Origin: an uncultured Verrucomicrobiae bacterium
GTDB lineage: Bacteria; Verrucomicrobiota; Verrucomicrobiia; Chthoniobacterales; JAATET01
NCBI GenBank assembly: GCA_963719495.1
Contig: CAVRCI010000013.1
Coordinates: 128,001 to 192,000 of the forward strand
Length of the DNA stretch: 64,000 nucleotides
Direction of reading: 5' to 3'
Shown here piece after piece: positions 4,173 to 32,207 of the stretch (positions are counted from its first letter, which is position 1; each line of letters begins with the position of its first letter). Made by a program: the position numbers and the translations under genes. Under the pieces are notes generated by a model. It made no database searches. It was not told the DNA's origin and saw nothing but the letters and a program-made list of their open reading frames with translations.

Positions 4173-4432
4173 AATTTTTCCAAAGGACGGAGATGCCGCC
4201 CCGATCGCGTCGTTCCGAAGAAGTTGATGGAGTTTTCAGGAGTTGAGAAAGGATAGGTCGACCGACGGGGAAGACAGGCTGAAAAGCGCGATTCGCGATG
4301 GCGTCGGCTGTATATCGAAGGCTCGATATGTATAGGTGGATTCACTCTACGGGTGTCCGCTGGCGATATCGCACGGTTCCAGTTTCCCGCCTAAAATGGG
4401 TCGGGGCTAAGCCTGACATCGGGCTCCTACTG

Positions 4433-7410: not shown

Positions 7411-7606
7411 AGAATAGATGGGTTCAAAAGAAGTGGTTAGGCGCGCGGGTGAGTCCGAGGCTAACTCTAGGGCGGCACGCCAAAGTCGATCAGGATCCGT
7501 CCCGCCGACTTCGATCGTCCGGAAGTTCGGGCACGCCAGCCAGCAACCCGCTGCCCGAGCCGCAACTCTGCGACTTCCATTTTTCGGCTCTGATCAGCAG
7601 CGCACA

Positions 7607-9100: not shown

Positions 9101-9114
9101 CGGGATAGGATCAA

Positions 9115-9897
9115 TCAACGCTCTGCCGTCGCGTCGCTCCAACCGACTGCGTCGGTAAAGGACGCGTTCCGCGGCCCCCAGTCGATGTCGTTTGGGTCCA
9201 CTGCCAACGCGTGTCCATCGACAAATACGACGTTGGCCTTTCCGGAGTGCCGCGGCATCACGTTGACACCTTCATCCCGGGCACCCCGGAAGAACGTGGA
9301 CCCCCGGCCAGGCGTGTCTTCGCGTTTGTCAAAGGGACCAGTCGAGTTCGGACCTCCGCCCGCGTCAGCGAAATAGACGGTCTTCGACGGTTTTCCGACC
9401 CGCACCTGCCGCTCGAACGCTGCCGGCGTTACCCAGACAGAAGCAAGGCTCGGGAAATTGATTCCGATCCCCAGAGGACTTCTCACACTTGAGATACCAC
9501 CGTCGCCGGGCGAGGCAGGCTTATGAAGTGCCGGGCAGGAAACGTGGGCCGCCTCGCACCCGTAGAGACTGAGGATGTCCGGCCAGGCGAGCACGCCGGC
9601 ACCAATGGCCACCGGATTCGACTCGGCGGCCTGCTGTGGGAAAATAGCTTTCGCCGTGTAGAGAGGGGGCAATTTTCCATCGTTGTCCGATGCGAAGAGA
9701 TTCGACGCAACGACCACACTTTTCATGTTGGAAAGGCACTTAGCTGCCGCAGCTCGTTCCTGCATGCCGCCGACCGCCGCGAAGATCAGAGAAGCCAGGA
9801 TCGCAATGATCGAGATGACCACGAGCAGTTCGATGAGGGTGAAGGCCCTCGCGCTGGGTTTAGCGGGCGGAAGAAAGTATGACGATCTGAGTTTCAT
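9115..9897 (-). CDS. Prepilin-type N-terminal cleavage/methylation protein with H-X9-DG C-terminal motif
   Basis: RAFTLIELLVVISIIAILASL N-terminus, CLSNMK motif, and RH-SGKANVVFV-DGHA, which is an exact H-X9-DG. Confidence 0.92.
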   Translation of the reverse strand: MKLRSSYFLPPAKPSARAFTLIELLVVISIIAILASLIFAAVGGMQERAAAAKCLSNMKSVVVASNLFASDNDGKLPPLYTAKAIFPQQAAESNPVAIGAGVLAWPDILSLYGCEAAHVSCPALHKPASPGDGGISSVRSPLGIGINFPSLASVWVTPAAFERQVRVGKPSKTVYFADAGGGPNSTGPFDKREDTPGRGSTFFRGARDEGVNVMPRHSGKANVVFVDGHALAVDPNDIDWGPRNASFTDAVGWSDATAER

Positions 9898-9953
9898 TGT
9901 CCGGGGGTGCTTGGGATCTGAAAAGGGAAGGGACCGAAATCTCTCCGATGCCT

Positions 9954-9967
9954 ATTGAACGATATGT
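9954..9967. promoter_or_regulatory. Candidate operator copy 1 (attgaacgatatgt)
   Basis: 11/14 identical to the copies at 11186 and 12784. Lies 57 bp upstream of the pilin-like gene. Confidence 0.5.
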
Positions 9968-10102
9968 ATATCGCGTCCCCGCGATCTTCGCAAGGAATGT
10001 TTCCTGAAGCGAAGTTGGTCGACCGGTGTAATGGCGGGGTCGATGTTTGGCCTACTGGCACCGGCAAGCAGTCGCCCCGCTTAATCCGGCGGGGCAGAAA
10101 CG

Positions 10103-10132
10103 AAAAAGCGGCCCGGGTCGAACCCGGACCGC
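10103..10132 (-). terminator. Rho-independent terminator of the PEP-CTERM gene
   Basis: Minus strand reads GCGGTCCGGG-TTCGA-CCCGGGCCGC-TTTTT, 25 bp after the stop codon. Confidence 0.8.
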
Positions 10133-10157
10133 AATTCGGAGGTCGATCGTTTCTCGA

Positions 10158-11111
10158 TTACGCCGAGCGCCGCTTCGAGCGCGCCCGGGTCAGGCCAACA
10201 AGGATCGCTCCCGCCGCCAGAATCAGGCCGTAAGTGCTGGGCTCCGGGACTGCTGTGACCGAGATGACGCTATTCAATCCCGTGCCGTAGTTGATCGAAG
10301 CCGACTCGCCAGCGCCGAGACCGATGAAGTTGACCGTGCCAAAGGTTCCCGAGAGAGCTCCCGAATAGTCGAAGAGATTCAGAGTTGAGGAACCTGCGAT
10401 GGAATATCCCGTGAAGTCGACGTTCAGTGTCGCTTTGGCACCGCCGAGGGTGAGGGCTTGGGCCGAGAGTGTGCTAACGCCGATGGCATCCGGCGTGAAG
10501 TTGATGGTGGCGAGGCCGTTGCCGCCGCCCAGATTCATATCGGTTGTTGCACCACTCCACGTGACGCCAGAGCCGTTTACATTCAGCGTTCCGCTCACTC
10601 CGTCGTTTGTGGCCCCGCTACCGACCCAAAACCGATTAGTCGCGCTCACCGAGCCCCCGTTCAGTGTGAGGGTACCATTGCGCCCGAATGTGCCTGTCGA
10701 CCCGACATACAAGTTTTGCTGCGCATTGAGGGTTCCCCCCGATTGCACCGTCAACAAAGAGTTACTGACGCCAGTGGTTCCGTTAAGACCCGTCACACCG
10801 AGATAGAGATCACCCGCCCCGACCGTCATCGTCCCGCCGGATGCGACGATGAGAGACCCGGTGTTGCCGAGAAGTAGGCGGCTTGCTCCCGCCAACCCAC
10901 CGAGACTCACCGCGAAAGTCGAGTCGATAACCGCGTTGTCCGTGCCGACTGGAACGACGTCACCCGCCCAGTTCGCCGGGGTCAAGTAGGCCGTGCCTGT
11001 TCCGCCAGGACCGCCGTCAAATTTGATGTTAGCCGCCGCGGCGGATTGAATGGTTGCAAGGGCACCAACAGCGAGTGCAGGAAGCAAATTGAAGAGCTTT
11101 TGAGTTTTCAT
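10158..11111 (-). CDS. PEP-CTERM surface protein (G/T/N-rich beta-helix-like)
   Basis: Signal peptide plus C-terminal VPEPSTYGLILAAGAILVGLTRARSKRRSA. Confidence 0.92.
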   Translation of the reverse strand: MKTQKLFNLLPALAVGALATIQSAAAANIKFDGGPGGTGTAYLTPANWAGDVVPVGTDNAVIDSTFAVSLGGLAGASRLLLGNTGSLIVASGGTMTVGAGDLYLGVTGLNGTTGVSNSLLTVQSGGTLNAQQNLYVGSTGTFGRNGTLTLNGGSVSATNRFWVGSGATNDGVSGTLNVNGSGVTWSGATTDMNLGGGNGLATINFTPDAIGVSTLSAQALTLGGAKATLNVDFTGYSIAGSSTLNLFDYSGALSGTFGTVNFIGLGAGESASINYGTGLNSVISVTAVPEPSTYGLILAAGAILVGLTRARSKRRSA

Positions 11112-17924: not shown

Positions 17925-18117
17925 CGGGGAGCGCACGCGTCCCCGCGTGCGAGCCGCGGCGTCCCGCCGCGGCACCTTGGCAAGTCGAGCGAAGCGAGAG
18001 AGCCGAACGCTCGAGGTGCGGCGGCTTCCAGCCGCCCATCCAACCCCATCCAACCCCATCCGGCACCAGCCGGACACCTTAGACGTTCCGACCTTCCGAC
18101 CTTCCGACCTTCCGACC
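17925..18117. repeat. Composite repeat cluster: REP-like palindrome, gagcgaagcgagagagccg module, 10-mer (ccatccaacc) and 8-mer (ccgacctt) tandems
   Basis: 17925-17973 matches 22141-22189. About 17980-18005 matches about 37733-37759. The tandem units are directly visible. Confidence 0.7.
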
Positions 18118-18169
18118 CCAAAACACCCGCATCGACACAAATCGCCCCGAAACCTAAGTTCAGGCCAGC

Positions 18170-19168
18170 ATGAGACCCGCCATCCTCGCCCTCGCAACCC
18201 TCACCCTCTTCACCCTCCTCACCATCGCGGGCTGCAACCGCTCCCCCGAGCCCACCGCCCAGCCCCCCCTCAAGATCGGGATCGAGACCTGGGCCGGCTA
18301 CGCGTTCGCCTACCTCGCCGAAGACCGCGGCCTCTTCGAAAAGCACGGCGTCGACGTCGAACTCGTCTTCGCGCAGGACAGCGCCACCTCCCGCGACCGA
18401 TTCGCCCGCGGCGAAATCATGGGGTGGTTCGACGTCCTCCCGGAAGCCGTCACCGGCTACGCGCGCGGGGTCCCCGCCCGCGTCGTCTGGGTCGTCGATT
18501 ATTCCGATTCCGCCGACGTTCTCATCGGCGACGCCGCCATCGACAGCATCGAAGACCTCGGCGGCAAACGCATCGGCATCGAAGGCATCAACACCTTCTC
18601 CCACATGTTCGCCCTCGAGCTCCTCGCCAAACACGGCATCCCGGAAGAAGCGGTCCAATTCGTAATCGTCAATCCCATGGAGATCCTCGCCGCGCTGGAA
18701 GCCGACCGGATCGACGCCGGTCACACCTGGGAACCGGTCAAGACCGAGGCCACCGCGAAGGGTTACAAAATCTTTGGCAAAGCCGGCGAGATCCCCGGCC
18801 TCATCACCGACGTCCTCTTCATGAGCCCCGAAGCGATCGCCACCCGGCCCAACGAGATCCAAGGCGTCGTCGCCGCCTTCGCCGAAGCCATCGAACTTTG
18901 GCGCGACCAGCCCGAGGACTCCCTTCGAATCATGGCCGAATCCGAGAAAATGACCGTCGACCAGCTCCGCGCCGACCTCGCCGGCCTTCACATCCTCGAC
19001 CTGCCCGACAACCGACGAGCCATGTCCCAGGACGATCCCGATTCCGTCTACGTCCGCCTCCACGACATCATCGAATTTTTCGTTTCCCGCGGCCAGATCG
19101 TCGCCCGACCCGCCGTCGATCAACTCGTCGATCCCCGCTTCATCCGGGCGATGCCGGACGAGCCGTGA
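18170..19168 (+). CDS. NMT1/SsuA-like substrate-binding lipoprotein
   Basis: Lipobox IAGC, plus [23 protein letters not shown] and IDAGHTWEP motifs. Confidence 0.88.
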
Positions 19169-21492
19169 GACTCGCCCACAAGCTCGCGCTCGCCTGCTCC
19201 ACCCTCACGGTCGGAGGCATTCTGCTCACGGCCGCCGTCGCGTGGTATTCGACGATCCGCGCCCTGGAAACGGAGATCGTGCGGGACTTCCAGACCTCGG
19301 CCTCGCGCACCATGCAGCAGCTCGACAGCTTCTTTCTGGCCCGCCGACAAAACATCGAGATCATCGCCAACGACTCGGTCGTCACCGATCCCACCTCGTC
19401 CCCCGCCGCGATCACCCGTCGGCTCATAGATTATCGTAACCGGCTCAAGGTCTACACGTCCCTCTCGTTCTTCGATCTGGACCGCGTCCGAATCGCCGAC
19501 ACCGCCGGTCTCGACCTCGGGCGGACTTCCGATCCCGGGGCCTTCTGGGACGATATCGCCCAAGGCTTCACCAGCGCCGGAGGGCATTACGCCTTCGTCG
19601 AAGATCTGCGGACGGAAGTCATTTTCTTCGCCTCCACCGTGCCGAACTCGGGCGGCGAGGTCATCGGCACCGTCGTCGCCCGCATGCCACTCTCCGTCCT
19701 CCACTTGCTCATCGCGCAGGTTCAACTCCCGGAACGAACCCAATCGATCCGCACCGACCTCGTCTCCGACGACGGCACCCTCCTCTACTCCAGCCACCTG
19801 CGCCCCGTCCATCTGCTCCGCCCCGTCGCCGGATGGGATTCGGTCCTCACTCAGATCGACGGTCGCCCCGTCGCCACCATCGACGGGAGCGCCATCGGTC
19901 GCGCCGACGACATCACCGTTGTCGTCGAGGAGCGCGGCTTCCTCGATTTTCCCGGCAATGGCTGGTCGCTCGTCGTCTCGATTCCGCGTTCGGAGGCCTT
20001 CGCACCAGCCGCCGATCTTCGCAACCGCCTCGTTGTCATCCTCGCCGCCGCCCTCGCGGTCTCCATCGTCGTCGCCATTCTGATCGCCCGCAATTTCACC
20101 CGGCCCGTCATGGCCCTCGCCGACCAAATGCGCGACGGCACGCACCCCGCGGCCCACCAGATCCTCGGCAATCGCTCGCGGCGGGACGAGATCGGCACCC
20201 TCATTCGCGGCTACCACTCGATGCGCGAACAGATCGAGACCGACCGCGAAGCCCTCCTCGCCGCCACGACCGAAGCCAACCGCGCCAACCAGGCCAAGTC
20301 GGATTTCCTCGCCGCCATGAGCCACGAAATCCGCACCCCCCTCAACGGCGTCGTCGGCTTCTCGTCCCTCCTGCTCGAAACACCCCTGAACGAAGAACAG
20401 ACCGAGTTCGCCCGCGCCGCCGTCAACAGTTCCGAAGTCCTCCTCGGCCTCGTCAACGACGTCCTTGATTTCTCAAAGATCGAAGCCGGCAAATTCGAGC
20501 TCGAAATCGCCCCCTTCGACCTCCGCTCCACGATCTCATCCTGCCTCGAACTCATCGAGCCGACCGCCGCGCGGAAATCCCTCGCCCTCCGCTCCGCCGT
20601 CGCCCCCGATTGCCCGACCCTCTTCAACGGCGACGTCCTCCGCTTCCGCCAGATCCTCACCAATCTCCTCAGCAACGCCGTCAAATTCACCAGCACCGGC
20701 ACCATCAGCATCACCGCCTCGATTGAAAAAAAATCCGCACCAGCGGATCAAGACAGGACCTCCCGACCTTCGACCCTCGACTCGCTCTGCGTCACCGTCA
20801 GCGACACCGGCATCGGCCTCACCCCCAGCCAGCAAGCGACCATCTTCGACTCCTTCACCCAGGCCGACGCCAGCACGACGCGCCGCTTCGGCGGCACCGG
20901 TCTCGGCCTGGCCATCACCAAACACCTGCTCGAGCTCATGGGCGGCACCATTCGAGTCGAGAGCGAACCCGACACCGGCAGCACCTTCATCGCCACCATA
21001 CCCATCCATCCCCCCGGACCCGACGACCGACCGGCCCGGCCGACACTTTCGCAACATCCGACCGACGAACCGACCGCCTCCCCCACCCTGCCCGCCGGGC
21101 TGCGCATCCTCCTCGTCGACGACGTCCGGACAAACCTACTTCTGGGCAGCGCCATGCTCAAACGACTGAGCGCCACCGCGACCCTCGCCGGCAATGGCCT
21201 CGAAGCTCTCGTCGCACTCCGCGAACAAGGCTACGACATCGTCCTCATGGACATCGAGATGCCCGAGCTCGACGGCATCGACGCCACCCGCGCCATCCGC
21301 CAGGAATTCCCGGCCTCCCGGCAGCCCTGGATCATCGCCGTCACGGCCCACGCCACCGAAGCTGATCGGGAACGCTGCCTCGCCGCCGGCATGAACGATT
21401 ACCTCACCAAACCCATCCGCCTCGACCGACTCGCCACCGCCATCCGCCGAGCCGAAACCCCGCAGCCCGAAACGAAGCCACGGATTTCATGA
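19165..21492 (+). CDS. Hybrid sensor histidine kinase/response regulator (Cache-like periplasmic domain, HAMP, HisKA, HATPase, REC)
   Basis: GTG overlaps the SBP stop. [47 protein letters not shown] and YLTKP motifs. Confidence 0.93.
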
Positions 21493-21538
21493 AAAAAAGA
21501 TACGCGCAACCCGGCCTTCACCCGCGAAACAAGGATCT

Positions 21539-22045
21539 ATGAAACTCAAAACCCTACGAAATCTGTCAGCGGTCGCAGCTCTCGGACTCCTTCCCATCGC
21601 GGCCCACGCCGACGCGGACGCAGCGAAATCGATCGCTTCCGAAGCCGCCACGGACGCCTCCGACGATGCTACGACGACCACTGCGGTCGTTGCGGACGAC
21701 GCCGAGGATGCCACCACCACGGTCACGACCGAAGCAACCGAAGCGAGCGACGGGACGTCCTCCGTGGGCGACGCCGACACCAGAGCCAACGAAATCGACG
21801 AGAAGGTCGATGACCCCATGTCCGCCTCCGAAGCGAAGCCCACTCTCACCAGCCCAAGCGTGAGCGCTGGAACGGGAATGGGATCGGCGACGAACACCGG
21901 CAGCGGCACCGGAGTCTCGCCCGAAGGTGACAACACCGGCGCCCGCGACAACAAGACCGAGCCCGGCGTCGGAGCAGGCAAAGCCAACGGCACCGGTAGC
22001 AACACCGGCAGCGGCACCGGAGCCGACACCGACATGGCTGAATAA
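21539..22045 (+). CDS. Secreted low-complexity (T/D/G-rich) hypothetical protein
   Basis: Signal peptide ending AHA. Followed by a strong terminator. Confidence 0.7.
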   Translation: MKLKTLRNLSAVAALGLLPIAAHADADAAKSIASEAATDASDDATTTTAVVADDAEDATTTVTTEATEASDGTSSVGDADTRANEIDEKVDDPMSASEAKPTLTSPSVSAGTGMGSATNTGSGTGVSPEGDNTGARDNKTEPGVGAGKANGTGSNTGSGTGADTDMAE

Positions 22046-22069
22046 GCGCCAGTCGCAAAGCAGATCACC

Positions 22070-22104
22070 AGCGGGGCAGCCAAAAGGCTGCCCCGCTTTT
22101 TTTT
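22070..22104 (+). terminator. Rho-independent terminator
   Basis: GCGGGGCAGCC-AAAA-GGCTGCCCCGC followed by T8. Confidence 0.92.
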
Positions 22105-22140
22105 GCGCCCAGCCATCAAGACACTTCCAGCCGCCGAATT

Positions 22141-22189
22141 CGGGGGAGCGCGCGCGTCCCGCGTGCGAGATGCGGCGTCCCGCCGCATC
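22141..22189. repeat. REP-like palindrome, second copy of 17925-17973
   Basis: gggagcgcgcgcgtcccgcgtgcgagatgcggcgtcccgccgcatc. Confidence 0.7.
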
Positions 22190-22304
22190 ACAGCGACCGC
22201 AAACCAAATCGAATGAGGCAAAGCGAAACCGGCTCCAGCAACCTGTCCCCAACTCACAGAATCAGGGAAACCCAGCACTGCCAGCACGATCAACGCGACT
22301 CGTT

Positions 22305-23276
22305 CTACTCGAACGAAATGACCACGTTCCCAACCTTGCGCCGCGATTGCACGCGGGCGTGGGCTTCCGCAATTCGGTCGAACGAATACACCCGCTCGAT
22401 CAAAGGGGAAAACACCCCTCTGGTCGCGAGGTCGACCATTCGCTCGAGGTCATCCCGACGCTCCGCGGCCGGTCCGACCACCGCGCGGCAGCCCCGTGAT
22501 CTCGCTCGGCGCGAAGCCCAAAGCAGGTCGCCCAGACCCCCCGCGATCAACGCGACCCGCCCGCCGGGCTTCACCAAATCAAGAGCTTGCGAACAATTCA
22601 TGGATCCGGCGGTTTCGAACACCACGTCGTAGCGATCCTCAATAGACCTGAGATCCCGCTTCGTGTAGTCGATCACGTGCTCCGCTCCGAGCGCGCGGAC
22701 CGTCCCGACGTTATCGCCCCGACAAACCCCGGTCACCGTCGCGCCCAGATGGCTGGCAATCCGCACCGCCGCGCTCCCCACACTCCCGGACGCACCGACC
22801 ACCAAAACACTCTCACCCCGACCAAGCTCCAAGCGACGGAAGAAATCCAACGCGGTCGTGCCCCCAAACGGAAGAGCCGCCGCCGTCGTAAAATCAAGAT
22901 TCGCGGGCTTCGCGACGATGTTCCCGTCTTCCGAAAGAACCTTGAATTCCGCGTGACAGCCCATCCGCGAACCGTCGAAGGCAATCACCTCATCGCCCGG
23001 ACGAAACTTCGTCACCTTCCGCCCCACCTGGTCGACGACGCCGGAAATCTCGGATCCCAGAATCGGCTGCCGCGGTTTCACCAAACCGAAGATCGGGCGA
23101 GCCAGCAGACCAAAACCCGGTGGCATCTCCAGACTACGAATGCGCCAATCGCCCGAAGTCACCGTCGTCGCGCGCGTCCGAATCAGGATCTCGTTGTCAC
23201 CCGGAACCGGCGTCGGCACCTCCACGATCCGAATTACCTCCGGCGATCCATAACCAATGCAAACAGCAGCCCTCAC
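22305..23276 (-). CDS. NAD(P)-dependent MDR-family oxidoreductase (quinone reductase/alcohol dehydrogenase-like)
   Basis: YGSPEV, ILGSEISGVV, AAALPFGGTTA, GASGSVG and LGAEHVIDY motifs. Start is either GTG 23276 or 23309. Confidence 0.9.
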   Translation of the reverse strand: MRAAVCIGYGSPEVIRIVEVPTPVPGDNEILIRTRATTVTSGDWRIRSLEMPPGFGLLARPIFGLVKPRQPILGSEISGVVDQVGRKVTKFRPGDEVIAFDGSRMGCHAEFKVLSEDGNIVAKPANLDFTTAAALPFGGTTALDFFRRLELGRGESVLVVGASGSVGSAAVRIASHLGATVTGVCRGDNVGTVRALGAEHVIDYTKRDLRSIEDRYDVVFETAGSMNCSQALDLVKPGGRVALIAGGLGDLLWASRRARSRGCRAVVGPAAERRDDLERMVDLATRGVFSPLIERVYSFDRIAEAHARVQSRRKVGNVVISFE

Positions 23277-23841
23277 GAAGCCAAACTCGCAACCGCGACT
23301 CCCGAACACATGTCCAGACTCACCGTCCCCGCCACCGCCAAAAACTTAAACTCAAATCCCGTCATCTAATCACCTCCGCTAAAAAAGCCGTCACGCTAGA
23401 CACCGTCAAGGTTCACGATTTGACGCCTGATTCCATTCCCTTGACTCGCTGTTTTTCGCGCTCAGCGATCAGGCGCATTTCGAGGAACGGCGGCTTTCAG
23501 CCACCGGAAACGGGAATTGCACGCGTTCCATCATGCGAACGGCGACAAAACGCCGTAGGAATCAATGCGAAGCCAATATCAGCACCCGCGAAATGCCCCG
23601 TCCCGTTCTCGACGATCAGCGACGTTCAATCCCCGGACTTCTGGAAACGGCCGAGCCGTCATTTGAGATCCACCAATCGCCTCCGGCAAATGATTCGAGA
23701 TGGTCACCTCCTTCAACCGAACCCGGAATTGAAATCCCTGGCTCACAGAAAGAGAGAGCCAGATCCAGACGCGAGCGCGTCGTCGGTAAAGATTTCGGAA
23801 CGGGCCAGAAAGGGCACTCGTTCGAACGGATGGGAACTCTC

Positions 23842-24828
23842 TCAAAAAGAATTCGCCCACCCATTCCTCCGAAGGTCTTCGATCGCAGCCAAATTCCATT
23901 CATTGATCTGGCCGAGCAAACCCTCCCATGGGGTCCTATCTCCTTGATGCAACCACAGCTCCCCGAGCAGGCCATTCCCGATCATTTCCACGATACGGCA
24001 ACGGTCAAATAGAAGCTTTGCGTTTCGCGTCGAACCTTCCCACCGAGCTCGATCGTGAGATTCCGAAATGAAGTAGGCTTTCATCGGAGGCGATTGGTAA
24101 GTCCGCTCCATCCAACGCTCTGTGAAAGAGCCGGGCTCCAATTTTGTCAGCTCATCCGTCCAATTCGTTCCAGTCTTGCATTGCCCGAAGATAGAAATCT
24201 GACTCGGTCGACCATCCGCGAATGGCAGCCAGCCCACCACGTCCAGCTTGTCGTCGTTGGCTTGCTCGCGGATCCCGTCGGTATTGCGGTACCGACCGCC
24301 CTCCCCAACGGCCCGGCAGAGATCATCAACCTTGTCGGCGAACCTGCCACCAACCGCGGTGCCGAAGACCATCGCCCGAGCACGGGTGGGATGAAGGTAG
24401 TGGCGCAGGATGTACGGCGAAAGACTTTCAAACAGCACTGTCCCGTCGAACCCGGCCCAAGCCCTTTGCTTTTGCATATCGAGACGCGTGGCAAGCAGCA
24501 GAAATTGATAGATCGTCGCTTGCGGAACCCGAACACGCTCAAGGTTCCGCAAAGTTGTGCTCTTCAGCTTGATTTCGAATGGATATCCCCCAGCTGCGGC
24601 AATTCGTCGGTCCTCGATTTCGACCAGCATCCGGGTGGCCAGCACTTCGTTGGCAGCATCACTGTCGTCCATGCCCTCGTTGCGAGCATTGTCGTCGAGC
24701 TGACCCAGATGGCGCTCGATCCGCCGAGCGGAACACTCGCCGTAGACCAAGGTGAGGCACTCCGCAAAATCAGCAAGCTCATGGGGCCGCGCCCGCAGAG
24801 AAGGCGTTCCCGGTAATTTGAAACTCAT
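23842..24828 (-). CDS. Putative PD-(D/E)XK (Mrr-like) endonuclease
   Basis: LFE helix ... DDKLDVV ... FGQCKTG matches the E..D..QxK active-site pattern. Starts 18 bp after the ParB-like gene. Confidence 0.6.
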   Translation of the reverse strand: MSFKLPGTPSLRARPHELADFAECLTLVYGECSARRIERHLGQLDDNARNEGMDDSDAANEVLATRMLVEIEDRRIAAAGGYPFEIKLKSTTLRNLERVRVPQATIYQFLLLATRLDMQKQRAWAGFDGTVLFESLSPYILRHYLHPTRARAMVFGTAVGGRFADKVDDLCRAVGEGGRYRNTDGIREQANDDKLDVVGWLPFADGRPSQISIFGQCKTGTNWTDELTKLEPGSFTERWMERTYQSPPMKAYFISESHDRARWEGSTRNAKLLFDRCRIVEMIGNGLLGELWLHQGDRTPWEGLLGQINEWNLAAIEDLRRNGWANSF

Positions 24829-24846
24829 CGATCTTTGAGTTGGGAC

Positions 24847-25962
24847 TTAGTCTTCGATTATACGGAGTTTTTTCCGATTCCCGTTCCTCATGACATCCAT
24901 TTCCTCGTAGACGGCGTCGGCGAGCGTAGCGACTGAGCCAGCGGTTTTGAGCAGGGATTCCGATCCGTCGTAACCGTTGGCCACGTAACTTTTAGCCCGC
25001 ATGAGCGCCCGCTTGGCGTCGAGCAGCGCATCCTCCAAGACCGCTCCGGCTGGGCGACTCAGCAGGAAGGACGCTCCCAACGACTCGCCAGCTCGAAGGG
25101 CCGAGATAGCCTCTCGATTATCGACCACCTCGTTGAGTTGCCTTAAGTCCGGGTTCTGGCTTTCGATCACCGACGGAGCACCACTTTTCTTGCTTCCGAA
25201 AAGCCAAGTGAGCAGCTCGCCCAGTTCGGAGATTTTATCTTTAGATACCGGCGAGTCGGTCTCGTCTTCTTTTTGAGCAAGATTTAGGAATCGACCGAAC
25301 CCGTCGTATTCCAAACCCGTGTAAAGATGGGAAAAGAAGATTCGCGAAGCGTAACAGTCGGCACGATCGTAAACGCCCGCGCGCTCAGCCTGCTCAAGCA
25401 CCATCAGCGCTCGAAAAAGCTTCTGGACCGTCCCGTGATTGTCACCAATCTGACGGGCGATATCCGAAAGACCGACGCCGTAATTCCGACGAACCTCCGC
25501 GATGTAGTTTGCCTTCGCAAAGCTCGTCCATTTCGCCGGACCGTTGACGTGCTTGAAGCCCATGTAGCGCCACGAAGCTTCACGGCTCTGCCTGAGGGTC
25601 GGAACCGACTCCAGCCTCACCTTGAGAGGCTCCGAAATCTCGGGAATCGTCCACTTGTTTTCGCCAGCGAACCGGGGTTGCGTCAGAACTTTGAGCGCGG
25701 CCAATCGACGATTGCCTTCGATGACAATCCGCTCGCCGTTCTCCTCTGAAACGATCAACGGCTCGTGGGCAAAATAGCCACTGGCCGCCATCGATAGGAC
25801 CAGCTCGCGCACGTCCATCTCCGTCCAAAGCGTCCGCAGGATCTCGTCTTCTTCACTCTCTTCCGTGATCCCGAACTCGATCAAACGCGGATTATTGCGA
25901 TCGAACCGGAGGTCAGTCACCAGCGAATCCTCCATTATCGGACATTCTAGTTCGACGTTCAT
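24847..25962 (-). CDS. ParB/Srx N-terminal domain protein with HTH
   Basis: FDRNNPRL, VIEGNRRLAALK (GxxRxxA), KHVNGPAKW and HTH-like LSDIARQIGDNHGTVQK. Confidence 0.8.
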   Translation of the reverse strand: MNVELECPIMEDSLVTDLRFDRNNPRLIEFGITEESEEDEILRTLWTEMDVRELVLSMAASGYFAHEPLIVSEENGERIVIEGNRRLAALKVLTQPRFAGENKWTIPEISEPLKVRLESVPTLRQSREASWRYMGFKHVNGPAKWTSFAKANYIAEVRRNYGVGLSDIARQIGDNHGTVQKLFRALMVLEQAERAGVYDRADCYASRIFFSHLYTGLEYDGFGRFLNLAQKEDETDSPVSKDKISELGELLTWLFGSKKSGAPSVIESQNPDLRQLNEVVDNREAISALRAGESLGASFLLSRPAGAVLEDALLDAKRALMRAKSYVANGYDGSESLLKTAGSVATLADAVYEEMDVMRNGNRKKLRIIED

Positions 25963-26861
25963 AACTTAGTAGCGGACTGCGGTATCGCGACCGTTTTCCC
26001 GCGAATTGTGGAAGCACGAGGCAAACAGACGCGGTGAGGGCAAATTAGCAATTCGCTTGCCTCGCGCTTTGCTTGGAATGAATAGTTGATTGGCAGTGAA
26101 AACACGTGGTCGTCAGCGTAGAGTGATCGAACCAAGCTGGTATCGTCGTAGGACATTGCCCACGGCAGCAGACTCTGACCGTGCAGATACGAGGCGATTT
26201 CCCGATGATTTTTGTTGGTGTAGGAATTCAAATACAGGCGCTCCGCCTTATTCACGTAGGGTGGATCGAGATAGACGAAAGCCTTCCGCCGAGCGCGACC
26301 GTTCGGCAGACCCCTTTTCAGAAATTCGATCGCGTCAAGTTGGGTGACATTGATTCGGTCCCGCTTCCTTGCTATGAGACCAATTCTGGTCGTGAGTCCA
26401 GCCCGATTGAAACGCGCGTCCAGATTCCACTCCCCTTTTTGCTCGAGGCCACCAATCGGCCCAGCCCCAGATAACACGCCCGATCGATTGCATCGATTCA
26501 TGTAAAATGCCGCGAACCCAACCTCGAACGAACTGTGCTTGGCAGGTTCATCACAGATGGCGCGCTCTTTCCGCCAATGCTCGATGTCGAGCGGGACGGT
26601 GGCGACTCGATCAACGAACCGATCCGTTTCGTCGAGGATCGAATGCCACAAGCTGGCAACCCGGAAATCGGCGTCGTTGATGTTGATTTCCGAAACGACC
26701 CCGTTCAAAAGAAGGGTCAGCGCGGCACCCGCACCGCCCGCGTAGGGCTCGAAGTAAGCGACATTTCGCAATTCGTTGAGGTCAATCACATCCGTAAGAA
26801 AGGATGCCAAACACGCCTTCCCTCCCGGGTAGCGCAACGGACTGAGATGTCGCTCCAACAC
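25959..26861 (-). CDS. D12-class (Dam-like) N6-adenine DNA methyltransferase
   Basis: SPLRYPGGK, FEPYAGG (motif I), INDAD, YLDPPY (motif IV) and SYDD. Confidence 0.93.
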   Translation of the reverse strand: MLERHLSPLRYPGGKACLASFLTDVIDLNELRNVAYFEPYAGGAGAALTLLLNGVVSEININDADFRVASLWHSILDETDRFVDRVATVPLDIEHWRKERAICDEPAKHSSFEVGFAAFYMNRCNRSGVLSGAGPIGGLEQKGEWNLDARFNRAGLTTRIGLIARKRDRINVTQLDAIEFLKRGLPNGRARRKAFVYLDPPYVNKAERLYLNSYTNKNHREIASYLHGQSLLPWAMSYDDTSLVRSLYADDHVFSLPINYSFQAKREASELLICPHRVCLPRASTIRGKTVAIPQSATKL

Positions 26862-26980
26862 GGTGTCTTGTTACGTGCCTGAGTCATTGTTGTCACGTTG
26901 CCTTTGATCCGTCGGCAGCCGATTGACCACCCGTGGCGAGGAAGCATTCATCGAGACATATTTGGTAGAGGCCAACTTCC

Positions 26981-28510
26981 TCACCGCCACAAATTCCGAT
27001 CCAGCGTCCGGTACTGAATCGCCTCCGCCAAATGCTCCGCCGCAATCGCTTCGACCCCCGCCAAATCCGCAATCGTCCGCGAAACTTTCAAAATCCGATC
27101 GTAAGCTCTTGCACTCAATTGCAGCTCGCTCATCGCCATCCGCAGCATCTCCTGACTCTCCGCGTCGAGCCGGCAATGCGTCTTCAAAGCCGCCGGTGTC
27201 ATCCGCGCATTGCTCGCGATCTTCGTTCGCGCAAAGCGCGCGCCCTGCACCCCACGCGCCGCCTCGACCCGTTCCCGGATCGCCCGCGAGGGCTCGGCCC
27301 GCACGTCGCTCGCCAGATCGCGATACTCCACCGCGGGCGCCTCGACGTGGATGTCGATCCGGTCGAGCAGCGGCCCCGAGATCCTCTGACGATATTTCTC
27401 CACCTGCACCGGCGAGCACCGGCACTCCCGCTTCGGATCTCCGAAGTATCCGCAAGCGCACGGATTCATCGCCGCCACCAACATGAACTGCGCCGGGAAC
27501 GTCATCGTCCCCGCCGCCCGGCTGATCACCACCCGCCCGTCCTCCAGCGGCTGCCGCATCACCTCGAGCGTCGAGCGTTTGAACTCCGGCAGCTCGTCCA
27601 AGAACAGCACACCCTGATGCGCCAGACTCACCTCGCCCGGCGACGGATTCGACGATCCGCCCAGCAGCCCCACGTCCGAAATCGTGTGGTGCGGAGCGCG
27701 AAAAGGCCGCACCCGCACGAACGACCGCGCCTCGTCCGTGAGCCCACAGATGCTGTGAATCTTCGTCGCCTCGATCGCCTCCTCCAGCGACATCGCCGGC
27801 ATGATCGTCGCGATCCGCTTCGACAACATGCTCTTCCCCGACCCCGGGGGCCCGATGAGCAGTAAATTATGGCCACCGGAAACCGCCACCTCGATCGCCC
27901 GCTTCACCTGCTCCTGCCCCTTCACGTCGGCGAAATCCAGATCCGGATCGTCCTCCACGACCGTCGCCGCGAAATCCACGTGGGTCGGTTCCAATTCCTT
28001 CGCCCGGCTGACAAATTCGTAGGCCTCCCGCAGCGACCGCACGCCATACACCTCGATGCCCTCGACCACCGCCGCCTCCGCCGCGTTCGCCAACGGCAGG
28101 ATCACCGCCCTTTTTCCTCGCCGCCTTGCCTCCAGCGCAATCGGCAGTGCCCCCTTGATCGCCCGCACCTCGCCGGTCAACCCGAGCTCGCCCACCATCA
28201 GACACCGCTCCAGCCTCGGCAGATCGGCATCCTCCGCAACGGCGACCATTCCGACTGCAATCGGCAGATCGAAACTCGGCCCCTCCTTCTTCACGTCGGC
28301 GGGCGCCAGGTTCACGGTCGTCCGGGTCCGCGGCCACCGGAACCCACTGTTCGCGATCGCCGTCGTCACCCGGTCCCGGCTTTCTTTCACCGACGTATCG
28401 GGGAGGCCCACGACGATGACCATCGGATCCCCGTGCCCGGCGTTCACCTCGACCTCGACCTCGCAGGCCTCCACGCCACGAAGCGCCGCTGAAAAAACCT
28501 TCGTGAGCAT
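26981..28510 (-). CDS. comM: YifB/ComM Mg-chelatase-like AAA+ ATPase
   Basis: [54 protein letters not shown] and SGPLLDRID motifs. Confidence 0.96.
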
Positions 28511-28708
28511 CCGCGCACCCTACAGGCCGCCGATTCCGCCTGTCGAATCCCGTTCGCCCACGAACTCAGCTTGTTTTCCCACCGCGCCAGGCGATGATCG
28601 GAGGCCAGCCCCCAAAGCAGCCGCAACCGTCGTCCCCCGCGAATGAATACTTCCGGCGCGTCGCTCGTTCCTCTCCTCGAACACCCAAACTTTCACCGCA
28701 TCAAAAAT

Positions 28709-30658
28709 ATGAAAATCCACCCCGTCACCTCACCCCGGAAGCGTCGCCTCGTGCGACCCGTCCTCCTCACCGCCCTGCTGGCGATGACCGTCCCGGCGCT
28801 CGTCACCCCGGCCACGGCCCAATACTCGACCACCACCGCGCCCATTTCCGACGACGCGTACCTGCTGGGCCCCGACGAGCTCGACGAAATGCTCGGCCCC
28901 ATTGCGCTCTACCCCGACGCTCTCGTCAGCCTCATGCTTCCCGCGGCCACCGTCCCCACGGACATCACGCTCGCCACCCGCTACCTCGACGATGGCGACC
29001 TCGATTACGTCGACGACCAGCCTTGGGACGAGAGCGTGATCGGCCTCACCCGCTACCCCGACGTCCTCGCCTGGATGGATGAGAATCTCGAATGGACCGC
29101 CGCTCTCGGCGAAGCCTTCTACGCCCAGCCGGAGGACGTCATGGCCTCCGTCCAGCGCCTTCGCGACGACGCCCGCGAAGTCGGTTCCCTCGTGAACACT
29201 CCGCAGCAGACCGTCATCGTCGAGCAGGAAGTCATCCGCATCGTTCCGACCGATCCCGAGATCATCTACGTCCCCGTCTACGATCCCCAGGTCGTCTACG
29301 TCGAGACCTACGAGCCCGCCTACGTCGGCAACGCCATCAGCTTCGGCGTCGGATTCGCCGTCGGCAGCTGGCTCAGTTACGACTTCGATTGGCGCCGCCG
29401 CGAGTTCTACTACGGCCCCGGCTACGGCTACAACAACCGCGACTACTGGTATGACCGCGGCTCCTACGACCGCGACCGCAACGTCAACGTCGTCGAGACC
29501 AACACCAACATCTCGAACGTCAACAACATCACCAGCGTCGACAATCGCAACATCGACAACCGCACCATCAACAAATGGCAGCCCAGCAACCGCAGCGACC
29601 GTCAGATCGAACAGCGTCGGCGCAACAACGGCGGCAACGCCCGCATCGTCCAAGCCGACCGCAAGAACCGCGCCGAAGGCAAAAAGCCCAACGGCAAGGC
29701 GAACAACCCGGCCATCCCCAAACCCGCGAAGCTGAAGGCCGACAAGAACCGCAAACCCGCCGGACCTCGCAAGGACGACAAGCGCCCGAACCAGCCCAAC
29801 AAGCAGGCGAACAACGACAAGCGCCCGAACCAGGACCGCAAGAACAACGCCAACAACAGCCGGGACAACGACAACGACAAGGGCAGGAAAACCAACAACG
29901 TCAACGCCGACCGCCCGAACCGCCCCAAGGTGCCCAGCGCCGCGCCGAAGGTCGCGGACAAAGCCAACGATCGCAAAAACGACAACGGCAACAAAAACCG
30001 GCAGGCGAAGGACAACAAACCAGCCGACCGCCCAAACGCGGACCGGAAAGGCAAATCGGACGTGAAGAAGCCCACCGAACGCCCGAACAAGCCAGCCGAG
30101 CGGAAGGCATCCGCGAACAAGCCAACCAAGCCGTCCGAAAAGCCAGCCAACCGTCCTTCGAACCAGGACCGTGAAAAAGCGGAGAAGCGCGCCAACGACG
30201 ACCAGCGCCAGAAGCAACAGCGCGAACAGGAACAGCGCAAGCAACAGGCTGACCGCCAGAAACGCCAGCAGCAGGAAGAGCGGCAACAGAAGCAGGCCCG
30301 CGACCAGCAGGCCGAGCGGCAGAAACAGGCCGACCGCCAGAAACAAGCCGAGCGCCAGAAGCAGGGAGAGCGTCAGCAACAGCAGCGCCAGCAAGCCGAA
30401 CGGCAACAGCAGGCCGAGCGGCAACAGCGCCAGAAGCAGGCCGAGCGCCAGCAGCAGGCTCAACGGCAGCAGCAAGCTCAGCGGCAACAGCAGCAGCAAC
30501 AACAACAACAACGCCAGCAGCAGGCCCAGCGCCCGCAGCAGCAGCAGCGCCAGCAACAGCAGCGCCCCCAGCAGCAGCAACGCCAGAACTCGAATCGTGA
30601 AGACGACTCGAACCAAAAGAAAAAGAAGAAGAACAACAACAACGGCAACCGCAACTAG
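28709..30658 (+). CDS. DUF3300 domain protein with long disordered K/N/D- then Q/R-rich tail
   Basis: LDEMLGPIALYPDALV, WDESV, WTAALGEAF, DVMASVQRLR and IYVPVYDP motifs. Confidence 0.88.
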   Translation: MKIHPVTSPRKRRLVRPVLLTALLAMTVPALVTPATAQYSTTTAPISDDAYLLGPDELDEMLGPIALYPDALVSLMLPAATVPTDITLATRYLDDGDLDYVDDQPWDESVIGLTRYPDVLAWMDENLEWTAALGEAFYAQPEDVMASVQRLRDDAREVGSLVNTPQQTVIVEQEVIRIVPTDPEIIYVPVYDPQVVYVETYEPAYVGNAISFGVGFAVGSWLSYDFDWRRREFYYGPGYGYNNRDYWYDRGSYDRDRNVNVVETNTNISNVNNITSVDNRNIDNRTINKWQPSNRSDRQIEQRRRNNGGNARIVQADRKNRAEGKKPNGKANNPAIPKPAKLKADKNRKPAGPRKDDKRPNQPNKQANNDKRPNQDRKNNANNSRDNDNDKGRKTNNVNADRPNRPKVPSAAPKVADKANDRKNDNGNKNRQAKDNKPADRPNADRKGKSDVKKPTERPNKPAERKASANKPTKPSEKPANRPSNQDREKAEKRANDDQRQKQQREQEQRKQQADRQKRQQQEERQQKQARDQQAERQKQADRQKQAERQKQGERQQQQRQQAERQQQAERQQRQKQAERQQQAQRQQQAQRQQQQQQQQQRQQQAQRPQQQQRQQQQRPQQQQRQNSNREDDSNQKKKKKNNNNGNRN

Positions 30659-30667
30659 CCCGTCACC

Positions 30668-30694
30668 GGTGGTTCCCGATCCTCGGGAACCACC
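30668..30694. terminator. Hairpin between convergent genes
   Basis: Perfect 12-bp stem ggtggttcccga-tcc-tcgggaaccacc. No clear U-tract. Confidence 0.55.
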
Positions 30695-30715
30695 TCTTCG
30701 GCGGAACCGGCCCGC

Positions 30716-31522
30716 TCATTCGATGTGCCCGTATCGGGCGCGAACCGCGCAATACACCCCGTAGGCCGCCAAGCCCAGCGCCATCGCCCCGAGCAGCCAG
30801 GCGCCATAAGGCTGCTGCTCGAGCGACTCGATCGCCGCGCCTGATCCCTTCACGGCACCCGAGTTTGCCTGCCATCCGGCTGTGATCAGGAACCCACCGA
30901 TCAGCAGAAACACGAACCCGCGCGCCGCGATCCCGAACCTCGCCAGGCGATCCACCCATTTCTTCACCGTCGCGCTTCCGTCCGTGACCGTGAATTTTTT
31001 CCGATACCGAGCCGAAAACGATTGGTAGAAAAACCACCCCGCAACCCCGACGATCGCCAGCCCGACCGCGATCACCGCCCATTCTCCCAGCGGCTGCCGC
31101 ATCGCCGTCGAAGCGGCCTCCCGGGTCCCCGAGCCGCCTCCATCGCTCCCACCACTCCCCACCAGCCGACTCCCCGCCGCCCACGCCAGACCAGCGTAGG
31201 CCAGGCCGCTGAACAAATACCCGCCCCGCTTCGCGAGCGCGGCGAATCCATCCTTCCCACCCATCGACGGACCGAAAGCCGCGATCAGCCGCCAACCGAC
31301 GTAGCAGACAATCCCCACGAACAACAGCGCCAGAATGAACCAACCGAACGGCTGCCCCGCGAGCACGTCGAGCGTCGATTTCGCGTCCGGCTCCTGCGAA
31401 CCCCAGTTCAATGCCTCCATCCCCGCGAGCCCGGCGATCGTGAAATAAATCACCGCCTTCGCCGTGTATCCCGCCCTCGCCATCGCATCCACCCAACCTT
31501 TTTTATCACTCTTGCCACTCAT
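30716..31522 (-). CDS. DUF1206 membrane protein
   Basis: ARAGYTAKAVIY and three repeats ending QPFG/QPLG/QPYG. Confidence 0.85.
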   Translation of the reverse strand: MSGKSDKKGWVDAMARAGYTAKAVIYFTIAGLAGMEALNWGSQEPDAKSTLDVLAGQPFGWFILALLFVGIVCYVGWRLIAAFGPSMGGKDGFAALAKRGGYLFSGLAYAGLAWAAGSRLVGSGGSDGGGSGTREAASTAMRQPLGEWAVIAVGLAIVGVAGWFFYQSFSARYRKKFTVTDGSATVKKWVDRLARFGIAARGFVFLLIGGFLITAGWQANSGAVKGSGAAIESLEQQPYGAWLLGAMALGLAAYGVYCAVRARYGHIE

Positions 31523-31613
31523 TCCCGAAACGTTCGTCGCTCGGCCCCGAACCGGTCGGGCAAGTCTGGAGGTTGCGATCCTTCGAAACCGGAGCGAAAC
31601 TCCTGCCGAAATC

Positions 31614-32207
31614 ATGATCCGTCCGAAATTCTTCCTGTCCCTCCCGTCCGTTCTCCTGGCCCTGGCGATCGCTTCAACACCCGCAATCTTCGCTGAATCC
31701 GAAACCAGCGCCGCGAAGCCCGTCGTGGACTTCAGCGAACCATCCGACGCCGAGGCTTGGGACGTGGTGAACGACGGAGTGATGGGCGGGTTGTCCCGCG
31801 GCGAGATGAACGTGACCGACGGCGCGCTCGATTTCTCCGGCACCCTGTCGCTCGAGAACAACGGCGGCTTCTCGCTCGTCGAAACGTCCGGCGGGACTCG
31901 GAATTTCGAGGGAGCCACCGGAGTCCGCCTCCGCGTCAAGGGTGACGGACGCACCTACACCTTTCGCCTCGGCACCGACGCCCGCCACCGCGGCGACCGC
32001 GTTTCCTACAGCGCCGATTTCGAGACCGAGAAGGGCGAATGGGTCGAGCGAGTCATTCCCTTCGCGGATTTGAAGCCGATTCATCACGGTGAGTCCGTCG
32101 ACGCCCCACCCATCAACCTCGCGAACATCGAGCAAATTGGCATCCTCATCGGCGACAAAAATGCCGGCCCGTTCGAGATCCAAATCGACTGGATCGCCCT
32201 CGACTGA
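31614..32207 (+). CDS. CIA30 family protein (secreted)
   Basis: VVNDGVMGGLSRG, LSLENNGGF, VKGDGRTY and DKNAGPF motifs. Confidence 0.9.
   Translation: MIRPKFFLSLPSVLLALAIASTPAIFAESETSAAKPVVDFSEPSDAEAWDVVNDGVMGGLSRGEMNVTDGALDFSGTLSLENNGGFSLVETSGGTRNFEGATGVRLRVKGDGRTYTFRLGTDARHRGDRVSYSADFETEKGEWVERVIPFADLKPIHHGESVDAPPINLANIEQIGILIGDKNAGPFEIQIDWIALD

Follow-up and report, generated by a model that had tools for sequence, protein, structure and literature searches.

Proteins of the ParB fold were until recently known as CTP switches for the segregation of chromosomes and plasmids. We describe here three adjacent genes (the trio) encoding a DNA methylase, a ParB-like protein and a putative nuclease, which lie in a 64,000-nucleotide stretch of contig CAVRCI010000013.1 from an uncultured Verrucomicrobiae bacterium (this whole stretch is referred to as the window). 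A 2025 survey reports that the ParB fold binds several nucleotides and is fused to many domains, and an operon like the trio is not treated in the accessible part of that survey (PMC12704722). Among described systems, PD-lambda-5 is the nearest to the trio. In the available part of their study, Vassallo et al. (2022; PMC9519451) listed PD-lambda-5 as 'ParB/HEPN, methyltransferase' and described it as a compacted prophage 'RM+Abi' system, for which an mrr-deleted host was needed and which protected E. coli against 9 of 10 phages; the literature searched gives no mechanism for it. Lactococcal AbiR, according to the accessible text of PMC13064643, consists of a ParB-like protein, a nuclease/helicase and a sigma-like protein and is toxic without the LlaKR2I methylase. 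GmrSD is described in the accessible text of PMC12839542 as 'ParB and HNH'. No description of a system joining a ParB-like protein, a PD-(D/E)xK nuclease and a methylase was found in the full-text literature searched.

The trio and its immediate upstream neighbour are arranged as follows (positions of the window):

25959-26861, minus strand: open reading frame (ORF) of the D12-class methylase, 300 amino acids, GTG start
24847-25962, minus strand: ORF of the ParB-like protein, 371 amino acids
23842-24828, minus strand: ORF of the nuclease, 328 amino acids
26862-26980, minus strand: spacer of 119 bp between the comM stop and the methylase start
26981-28510: comM, directly upstream of the trio (Pfam Mg_chelatase, E = 2.5e-94)

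We put the probability at roughly 0.5 that the trio is a restriction-modification-like defence cassette in which the ParB-like protein is likely a nucleoside triphosphate (NTP)-gated DNA clamp that directs or licenses the nuclease. In such a cassette the methylase would tag the DNA of its own host, the ParB-like protein, as a likely nucleotide-gated clamp, would find incoming DNA that is unmarked, and it would then direct or license its partner nuclease to cut that DNA; the ParB-like protein and the nuclease together would form the restriction part. This reading draws directly on the folds and motifs of the proteins, the tight coupling of the genes, their conservation and joint diversification, the exchange of the methylase, the foreign origin of the DNA and the kinship with PD-lambda-5, each of which is set out below. 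From these we infer a function in defence, a contact between the ParB-like protein and the nuclease, the binding of a nucleotide of some identity by the former and a methylation mark that would block either loading or cutting. A preliminary description of this DNA had put forward, as the mechanism, that the ParB-like protein reads unmethylated sites or licenses the nuclease as a clamp, and this appears to us a reasonable hypothesis.

The same description had placed three coupled genes directly after comM, with an ATGA overlap followed by an 18-bp gap, and this layout is what the sequence contains. The methylase stop and the ParB-like start share the ATGA, giving a 4-nt overlap, and 18 nt separate the ParB-like gene from the nuclease start. 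The overlap hinges on the choice of start codon, because the public gene call P0121 begins the ParB-like protein nine codons later at an in-frame ATG (362 amino acids). A 4-nt overlap at the methylase/ParB-like junction is also present in 10 related loci. It is possible that the 119-bp spacer carries a promoter of the trio's own or, alternatively, that the trio is transcribed by read-through from comM. A consensus scan of positions 23200-27100 placed no sigma-70-like site in the spacer, and promoter and terminator scans of the same interval gave results at chance level.

The first gene of the trio matches Pfam MethyltransfD12 (E = 1.3e-10) and, over its full length, the PADLOC profile PD-Lambda-5_B (PDLC04018; E = 4.7e-100, residues 4-286 on positions 3-281 of 291), in agreement with the earlier assignment to the D12 methylases. 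Its product also matches PHROG 56, a DNA methyltransferase family (E = 3.2e-42), and the closest solved chain is 7m6b, an adenine methyltransferase (E = 1.2e-11). On these sequence matches we read the protein as a D12-class (Dam-like) N6-adenine DNA methyltransferase of the PD-Lambda-5_B type. The motifs that had been quoted from the three proteins are all found in the translations: FEPYAGG and DPPY in the methylase, NPR and EGNRRLAA in the ParB-like protein and E134, D196 and Q216-C-K218 in the nuclease. The motifs of the latter two proteins go beyond chance, as they are invariant among aligned homologues of the ParB-like protein and among related loci of the nuclease.

The ParB-like protein has three parts:

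residues ~8-130: N-terminal domain of the ParB/Srx NTP-binding type, with the EGNRRLAA motif
residues ~131-290: helix-turn-helix (HTH) DNA-binding domain
residues ~304-361 (last 60 residues): C-terminal helical hairpin

A ParB/Srx domain with an HTH had been proposed from motifs, and the fold of the AlphaFold2 model (mean predicted local distance difference test score [pLDDT], 89.9) bears it out. When the model was compared with the PDB by Foldseek, all 30 matches at E<=0.001 were ParB, Noc, KorB or pNOB8 ParB chains. VIA-align placed the model on pNOB8 ParB-N (Z = 8.5, 200 residues aligned), KorB (Z = 8.3), sulfiredoxin (Z = 8.2) and PadC (Z = 8.1), and residues 131-282 on the KorB DNA-binding domain (Z = 6.8). 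The family profile, searched against PDB sequences, matched Spo0J of H. pylori (E = 6.3e-4) with GNRR lying on GERR, and the GxRR motif (Box II; E82 G83 N84 R85 R86) is invariant in all 26 aligned homologues. The model thus points to a ParB/KorB-type protein, with a ParB/Srx N-terminal domain followed by an HTH. In the PADLOC collection, PD-Lambda-5_A (PDLC04017) matches the N-terminal part only (E = 6.1e-17, residues 15-173 on positions 16-176 of 473), and PDC-M38A matches with E = 1.4e-18. The family comprises at least 2700 clusters at 90% identity, a precomputed PF02195 match exists for a few homologues, and in PHROGs the protein matches phrog_3694, a family of unknown function (E = 5.8e-70); the nuclease likewise falls in a PHROGs family of unknown function.

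The nuclease has two parts:

residues ~10-120: winged-helix N-terminal domain
residues ~105-305: PD-(D/E)xK C-terminal domain, with E134, D192, D196 and Q216-C-K218

Its AlphaFold2 model (mean pLDDT, 78.5; predicted template-modelling score, 0.85) was aligned by VIA-align with AF1548 (Z = 7.7), MspJI (Z = 7.3), FokI (Z = 6.7) and AspBHI (Z = 6.6), values that are moderate by the tool's own warning. Among the 28 rows with Z>=5, 19 were nucleases by title, at Z 5.0-7.7 over residues ~105-305, and four were winged-helix proteins (BrxR, CapW, HlyU and Pex) that match the N-terminal domain at Z 5.0-5.6; winged-helix proteins overall scored Z 4.3-5.6 over residues ~10-120. These fold matches agree with the invariant E134...D192..D196...Q216-C-K218 pattern, in which D192, D196, Q216, C217 and K218 are identical in all 46 related nuclease loci. 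A HELADFAE helix near the N terminus of the nuclease is invariant as well. The protein is accordingly modelled as a winged-helix plus PD-(D/E)xK nuclease fold of an unnamed family. Sequence searches return little else: there was no match in Pfam, NCBIfam or PADLOC (for Pfam and PADLOC even at E 10), phmmer against PDB sequences gave only antibody chains at chance level, the family profile found nothing in the PDB at E<=1, and Foldseek against the PDB found nothing at E<=0.001, FokI and MspJI leading its list at E 3e-3 to 5e-3. The ESM Atlas returned only unnamed clusters and a weak lead (0.82) to HaeII-type endonucleases. The family is large, with 2330 representative clusters at E<=0.001, 1385 at E<=1e-10 and at least 953 clusters at 90% identity. 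Of the earlier label 'Mrr-like', the architecture, the D...QxK motif and the PD-(D/E)xK fold stand: as in E. coli Mrr, a winged-helix N-terminal domain precedes a PD-(D/E)xK domain with D...QxK, and the motif lines up in hhalign. Membership of the Mrr family does not, as there is no Pfam Mrr_cat or Mrr_N match and the hhalign comparison with E. coli Mrr is not significant (probability, 0.38%; E = 0.16); unlike Mrr, the nuclease has a methylase and a ParB-like protein as neighbours.

The trio is a conserved mobile unit that has diversified jointly across phyla. A genome_contigs scan of one genome per species for homologues of the nuclease yielded 47 loci, spread over nine or more phyla (Verrucomicrobiota, Planctomycetota, Nitrospirota, Acidobacteriota, Pseudomonadota, Cyanobacteriota, Bacteroidota, Chloroflexota and Lentisphaerota). 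In 43 of them the nuclease gene is immediately preceded by the ParB-like gene; the remaining four comprise two loci at contig ends, one truncated nuclease remnant and one pair split by ~1.6 kb. A PD-Lambda-5_B-type methylase is found just upstream in 27 loci, so that the expectation of co-occurrence in other genomes is confirmed for the pair and, in these loci, for the whole trio. Remnants of this methylase type are present in two further loci and a methylase of another class stands beside the pair in three (a different D12 type in L030 and L035, an N6_N4 type in L046), while 11 loci have none detected in the fetched flanks and four cannot be judged, which leaves 43 assessable. A methylase swapped around a constant pair is what self-marking by modification predicts. 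The gene junctions in related loci mostly range from -4 to +5 nt. Across 24 complete trios, pairwise identities are correlated between the ParB-like protein and the nuclease (r = 0.93), the methylase and the ParB-like protein (r = 0.86) and the methylase and the nuclease (r = 0.84); for each pairing, none of 2000 permutations reached the observed value.

Three loci carry further ORFs beside the pair. In L026, where the usual methylase is absent, an upstream ORF (3935-4846) weakly resembles RE_HaeII (E = 5.9e-5). In L046 an upstream ORF is weakly like HSDR_N (E = 2.7e-8) and the N6_N4 methylase follows the nuclease gene (3650-4603 and 6940-8028). The most distant relative of the pair (L048, 30-6909; nuclease 29% and ParB-like protein 34% identity, with ORFs of 380 and 558 amino acids) is preceded by an ORF of 1347 amino acids without a Pfam match and may be a larger variant of the system.

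In this genome the trio is foreign, horizontally acquired DNA. The preliminary description had noted its lower GC content and weak skew, and both hold on measurement: GC is 0.53-0.60 over 23250-26999 against 0.62-0.69 on either flank, and GC skew is -0.01 to -0.13 against -0.2 to -0.37. In the native flanks (window 18000-32000) the plus-strand GC skew stays at -0.2 to -0.37 regardless of gene orientation, a skew that the trio lacks. The drop in GC is confined to ~23250-27000, part of a variable segment of 4.87 kb downstream of comM:

22109-26978: variable segment, with a zinc-type alcohol dehydrogenase gene (22305-23309) and the trio

In one congener (G001) the conserved flanks (window 21730-22108; comM 26979-28515) are only 510 bp apart. 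A second congener (G003) has the same insert as the window at 92% DNA identity, and a third (G004; locus L058, G004:C5:272000-284800, 2876-10573) has a different insert of 7.7 kb at this site, with three short-chain dehydrogenase ORFs, a TetR regulator and ORFs of no known kind. Because the insert of the third congener is unrelated, the site downstream of comM is a variable spot in the genus and not one specific to defence. The nuclease was found in 3 of 31 genomes of its own order, including that of the window, and in 1 of 5 congeners, and in the nuclease tree the phyla are interspersed, with, for example, Microcystis beside Ideonella at 100/100 support. Defence or mobile-element genes (HsdM/HsdS, TraC/TraG, integrase, transposase, DUF4041-T5orf172) occur in 8 of 18 trio neighbourhoods. 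We also considered comM itself as the target of integration and rejected it: comM is intact (509 amino acids, full Pfam matches) and the insert lies downstream of it. No integrase was found at the insert in the Pfam scan, and no wider search for an integrase or for flanking repeats was made.

The congener that shares the insert has a second full trio ~84 kb away (L060, G003:C1:786000-797000, trio at ~4317-7164), which is 61% (methylase), 63% (ParB-like protein) and 48% (nuclease) identical to that of the window. Two diverged trios in one genome are usual for restriction systems of different specificity. One TAG was counted inside the nuclease match of this second trio in an initial search row. 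In another genome of the same order (L061, G018:C307, 1656-4509) the matches to both the methylase and the ParB-like gene are split into two pieces that lie in different frames, through either decay or an assembly error.

The best reading of these data is that the trio is a sister form of PD-lambda-5 in which a DNase stands where PD-lambda-5 has its RNase domain. It is a relative of a validated system, and not a kind of its own, because its methylase is of the PD-Lambda-5_B type over the full length and the N-terminal domain of its ParB-like protein is held in common with PD-Lambda-5_A. The two systems thus have in common the methylase family (E = 4.7e-100), a homologous N-terminal ParB-type domain together with the helices that follow it, and the form of a compact mobile operon. 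BLASTP aligned the ParB-like protein with residues 20-188 of gp27 of Marinobacter phage AS1 (28% identity, E = 7e-16), with the similarity ending at about residue 181; gp27 is a true PD-Lambda-5_A protein (E = 1.4e-42, covering 4-381 of 473) that adjoins a B-type methylase and an integrase. The differences are equally plain. In PD-lambda-5, which has only two genes, the ParB domain is joined in one protein to a HEPN (RNase-type) C-terminal part, whereas here there are three genes; the ParB-like protein ends in its own HTH and a helical hairpin, the effector is encoded separately as a winged-helix/PD-(D/E)xK protein, and the methylase gene comes first here and last in phage AS1. In keeping with this, the ParB-like protein falls short of the full length of PD-Lambda-5_A (a ParB/HEPN protein of about 430-590 amino acids), and the fused two-gene architecture is absent. 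Derivation of the nuclease from the C-terminal half of PD-Lambda-5_A by a split was tried and rejected (hhalign probability, 0.9%); that half is labelled HEPN in the available part of PMC9519451.

The PD-Lambda-5_B-type methylase has differing partners in phages: a ParB/HEPN-type protein in Marinobacter phage AS1 (L050, 2447-4912) and, in Citrobacter phage phiNP (L049, 2131-4813), an AAA_15/AAA_21 (OLD/PtuA/GajA-like) ATPase of 595 amino acids. On the PDC-M38A profile (715 positions), ParB-like proteins match ~59-355 and the AAA/ABC-type ATPase of phiNP matches 382-692; the profile looks as if it were a fusion of both kinds of partner.

A second set of relatives is a cassette of P2-like phages (Wphi gp98-gp96-Mth, a P2 variant, L-413C and Pseudomonas phage D14A). 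Its ParB-like proteins align with ours over 80-88% of their length at ~30% identity, its partner proteins are homologous to the nuclease by profile comparison (98.3%, E = 1.8e-14; 95.7%, E = 9.5e-9), and its third gene is a DNA methylase, all within the variable region of the phage. Unlike in the trio, this methylase is a convergent cytosine-5 enzyme, and the phage partners read QCA or QCG where the nuclease family has an invariant QCK. The sequence records give no function for this cassette, which is absent from PADLOC as a system. The preliminary description had proposed the trio as an undescribed defence system. This needs qualifying for the methylase and for the N-terminal domain of the ParB-like protein, which belong with PD-Lambda-5_B and PD-Lambda-5_A, and it stands for the nuclease, which has no PADLOC match, and for the trio as such, which is not described in the literature searched. 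What is new is the three-gene form built around an unannotated nuclease family; PD-lambda-5 and the P2-phage cassette, its relatives, were already known.

Other described systems resemble the trio in part. AbiR, likened here by description alone, also combines a ParB-like protein with a restriction-endonuclease-type effector and depends on a methylase, but its nuclease is part of a fusion with an SNF2-type helicase and a sigma70-like protein also belongs to it; Pfam detected neither a sigma70-like nor an SNF2-type helicase domain in the trio or its flanks. GmrSD, BrxU and SspE likewise couple a nucleotide-binding domain of the ParB superfamily to a DNA nuclease in defence. In these enzymes one polypeptide combines a DUF262-type ParB domain with an HNH nuclease, and they act on modified DNA without a cognate methylase, whereas the trio has two polypeptides, a canonical ParB/KorB-like domain with an HTH, a PD-(D/E)xK nuclease and usually a methylase. 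The ParB, Noc and KorB clamps share with the ParB-like protein the fold of the N-terminal domain, a GxRR in register with GERR, an HTH next to it and a C-terminal helical part that could dimerise; unlike them, the trio has no parA, partition context or Pfam ParBc match, its partner is a nuclease and its third box differs.

Several observations weigh against the restriction-modification-like reading, and they concern the clamp, the setting of the trio and the methylase. In canonical ParB proteins the third conserved box is ENLQR; where it aligns, the ParB-like protein reads GFKHVNGPAKW. Neither ParBc nor any other Pfam family matches the protein even at E 10, and TIGR00180 scores 23.1 bits, below its cut-off of 58.45. 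No fused ParB-nuclease protein was found at E<=0.001 among proteins of 575-2000 amino acids, which is weak evidence by the tool's note; the best 150 of 2330 nuclease-family representatives are all 139-407 amino acids long, with no fusion among them. The surroundings in the window are housekeeping genes within ~18 kb, and the Pfam scan found no defence island or integrase near the trio within that distance. According to the accessible part of PMC12704722, neither sequence nor AlphaFold3 models predict which nucleotide ParB-type proteins bind. For the ParB-like protein, neither hydrolysis nor the identity of the nucleotide that it would bind can be predicted. A bolder form of the clamp hypothesis would make the ParB-type protein, as a nucleotide-gated sliding clamp, the subunit for long-range communication in a class of restriction-modification systems that is widespread and has so far gone unrecognised. 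Loading where target sites lack methylation, the clamp would carry or activate a dedicated PD-(D/E)xK nuclease without a motor ATPase, thus taking the role of the helicase-type motors of type I and III systems, with a methylase exchangeable among N6-methyladenine, N4-methylcytosine/N6-methyladenine and 5-methylcytosine types. We offer this form only tentatively and regard it as doubtful.

A main tension with a restriction-modification-like cassette lies in the methylase. In 11 of the 47 loci the catalytic residues of the nuclease are intact with no methylase detected in the flanks; most of these pairs fall in one well-supported 14-row clade of the nuclease tree and persist through related species, and four related alphaproteobacterial genomes hold such a pair between cobalamin genes. 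In five genomes with a pair of this kind the only D12 methylases, encoded elsewhere, are distant, at 24-29% identity bar one remnant at 45%. Since these loci keep an intact pair, the pair is not obviously lethal without a cognate neighbour, and strict restriction-modification logic is weakened because about a quarter of the loci keep the pair without a detected neighbouring methylase. The same loci would suit a self-contained ParB-nuclease module for which the methylase is optional, acting either in a type IV-like manner, as GmrSD, Mrr and SspE do, on modified or marked foreign DNA, or as an abortive-infection nuclease that responds to a phage cue. The methylase would then be an add-on, for example one that protects against other systems or widens the range. 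Such a module would fit the winged-helix and D...QxK layout that the nuclease shares with methyl-directed enzymes, the presence of MspJI and AspBHI (modification-dependent by title) among the best folds and the ParB-type domains that head known type IV enzymes such as GmrSD ('ParB and HNH' in the accessible text of PMC12839542). It would also fit PD-lambda-5, which is called 'RM+Abi' and which, in the available part of PMC9519451, protected best against T-even phages with modified DNA; this behaviour is unlike classical restriction and also counts against the restriction-modification-like reading. We nonetheless consider a self-contained module unlikely. Most of the 43 assessable loci have a methylase of one class or another next to the pair (27 of the same type, 3 of another and 2 remnants), the methylase co-diversifies with the pair (r 0.84-0.86), and distant phage versions still keep one. 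Furthermore, a methyl-directed nuclease would need a specificity that avoids the mark of the active adenine methylase next to it, and the nuclease is not significantly related in sequence to E. coli Mrr (probability, 0.38%).

If the methylase and nuclease formed an ordinary type II pair, the ParB-like protein might be only a transcriptional controller, a KorB-like or C-protein-like repressor that times the nuclease after entry into a host. The superposition of its HTH on the KorB DNA-binding domain (Z = 6.8) and of its N-terminal domain on KorB (Z = 8.3), entries that are titled transcriptional repressor, would agree with this, as would the position of its gene just before that of the nuclease, whose own winged-helix domain could read DNA unaided. 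In a classical type II system, adjacent methylase and endonuclease genes suffice by themselves; both kinds of gene are present here, the ParB-like gene is inseparable from the nuclease gene in 43 of 47 loci, and the methylase is undetected in 11 of 47. Small controller proteins are ~80-100 amino acids long; the ParB-like protein, at 371 amino acids and with a conserved domain of the nucleotide-binding type, is far above that size. Loci in which no methylase is detected nearby retain the pair, with the GxRR and nuclease motifs invariant, and a comparison of the sequences that precede the methylase gene in 23 loci found neither a shared palindrome (operator- or parS-like) nor a shared 7-mer, the best word occurring in 6 of 23. 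In addition, the homologous domain is fused to an effector in PD-lambda-5 ('ParB/HEPN' in the available part of PMC9519451) and the ParB-like part of PDC-M38A is followed by an AAA/ABC-type ATPase part, arrangements that suggest a role for ParB-like proteins in an effector complex. A mere controller thus seems improbable to us. Much less probable still is a function outside host defence, whether as a selfish module for addiction or competition between elements (post-segregational killing) or as a DNA-handling accessory of conjugative elements. Some relatives do occur in conjugative or mobilisable contexts (TraC/TraG in L022, TrbL and NikA in L016), and the cassette here stands alone, as a 3-kb insert surrounded by housekeeping genes, a setting typical of selfish restriction-modification-like units. 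For such units, however, addiction and defence are not exclusive, 10 of 18 neighbourhoods have no mobile-element or defence gene within 4 kb, and the relatives for which there are data, PD-lambda-5 and AbiR, protect against phages as far as the available parts of their sources go.

As the trio separates the ParB-type part from a plain DNase, the role of the ParB domain in immunity becomes directly testable. Current tools for finding defence systems would miss or mislabel such loci, because the large nuclease family is unannotated in Pfam, NCBIfam and PADLOC. If the clamp model is true, the trio would represent a new way for restriction enzymes to link the recognition of a site to cutting; should the model fail, the locus would still add a useful new member to the defence cassettes that are linked to a methylase.

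Beyond comM, the window holds a DUF3300 protein (28643-30658, plus strand; E = 8.7e-49) whose tail of ~350 residues consists nearly entirely of Q, R, K, N, D, A, P and E, with long QQQ/RQQ runs; the AT skew reaches 0.86 over this stretch.

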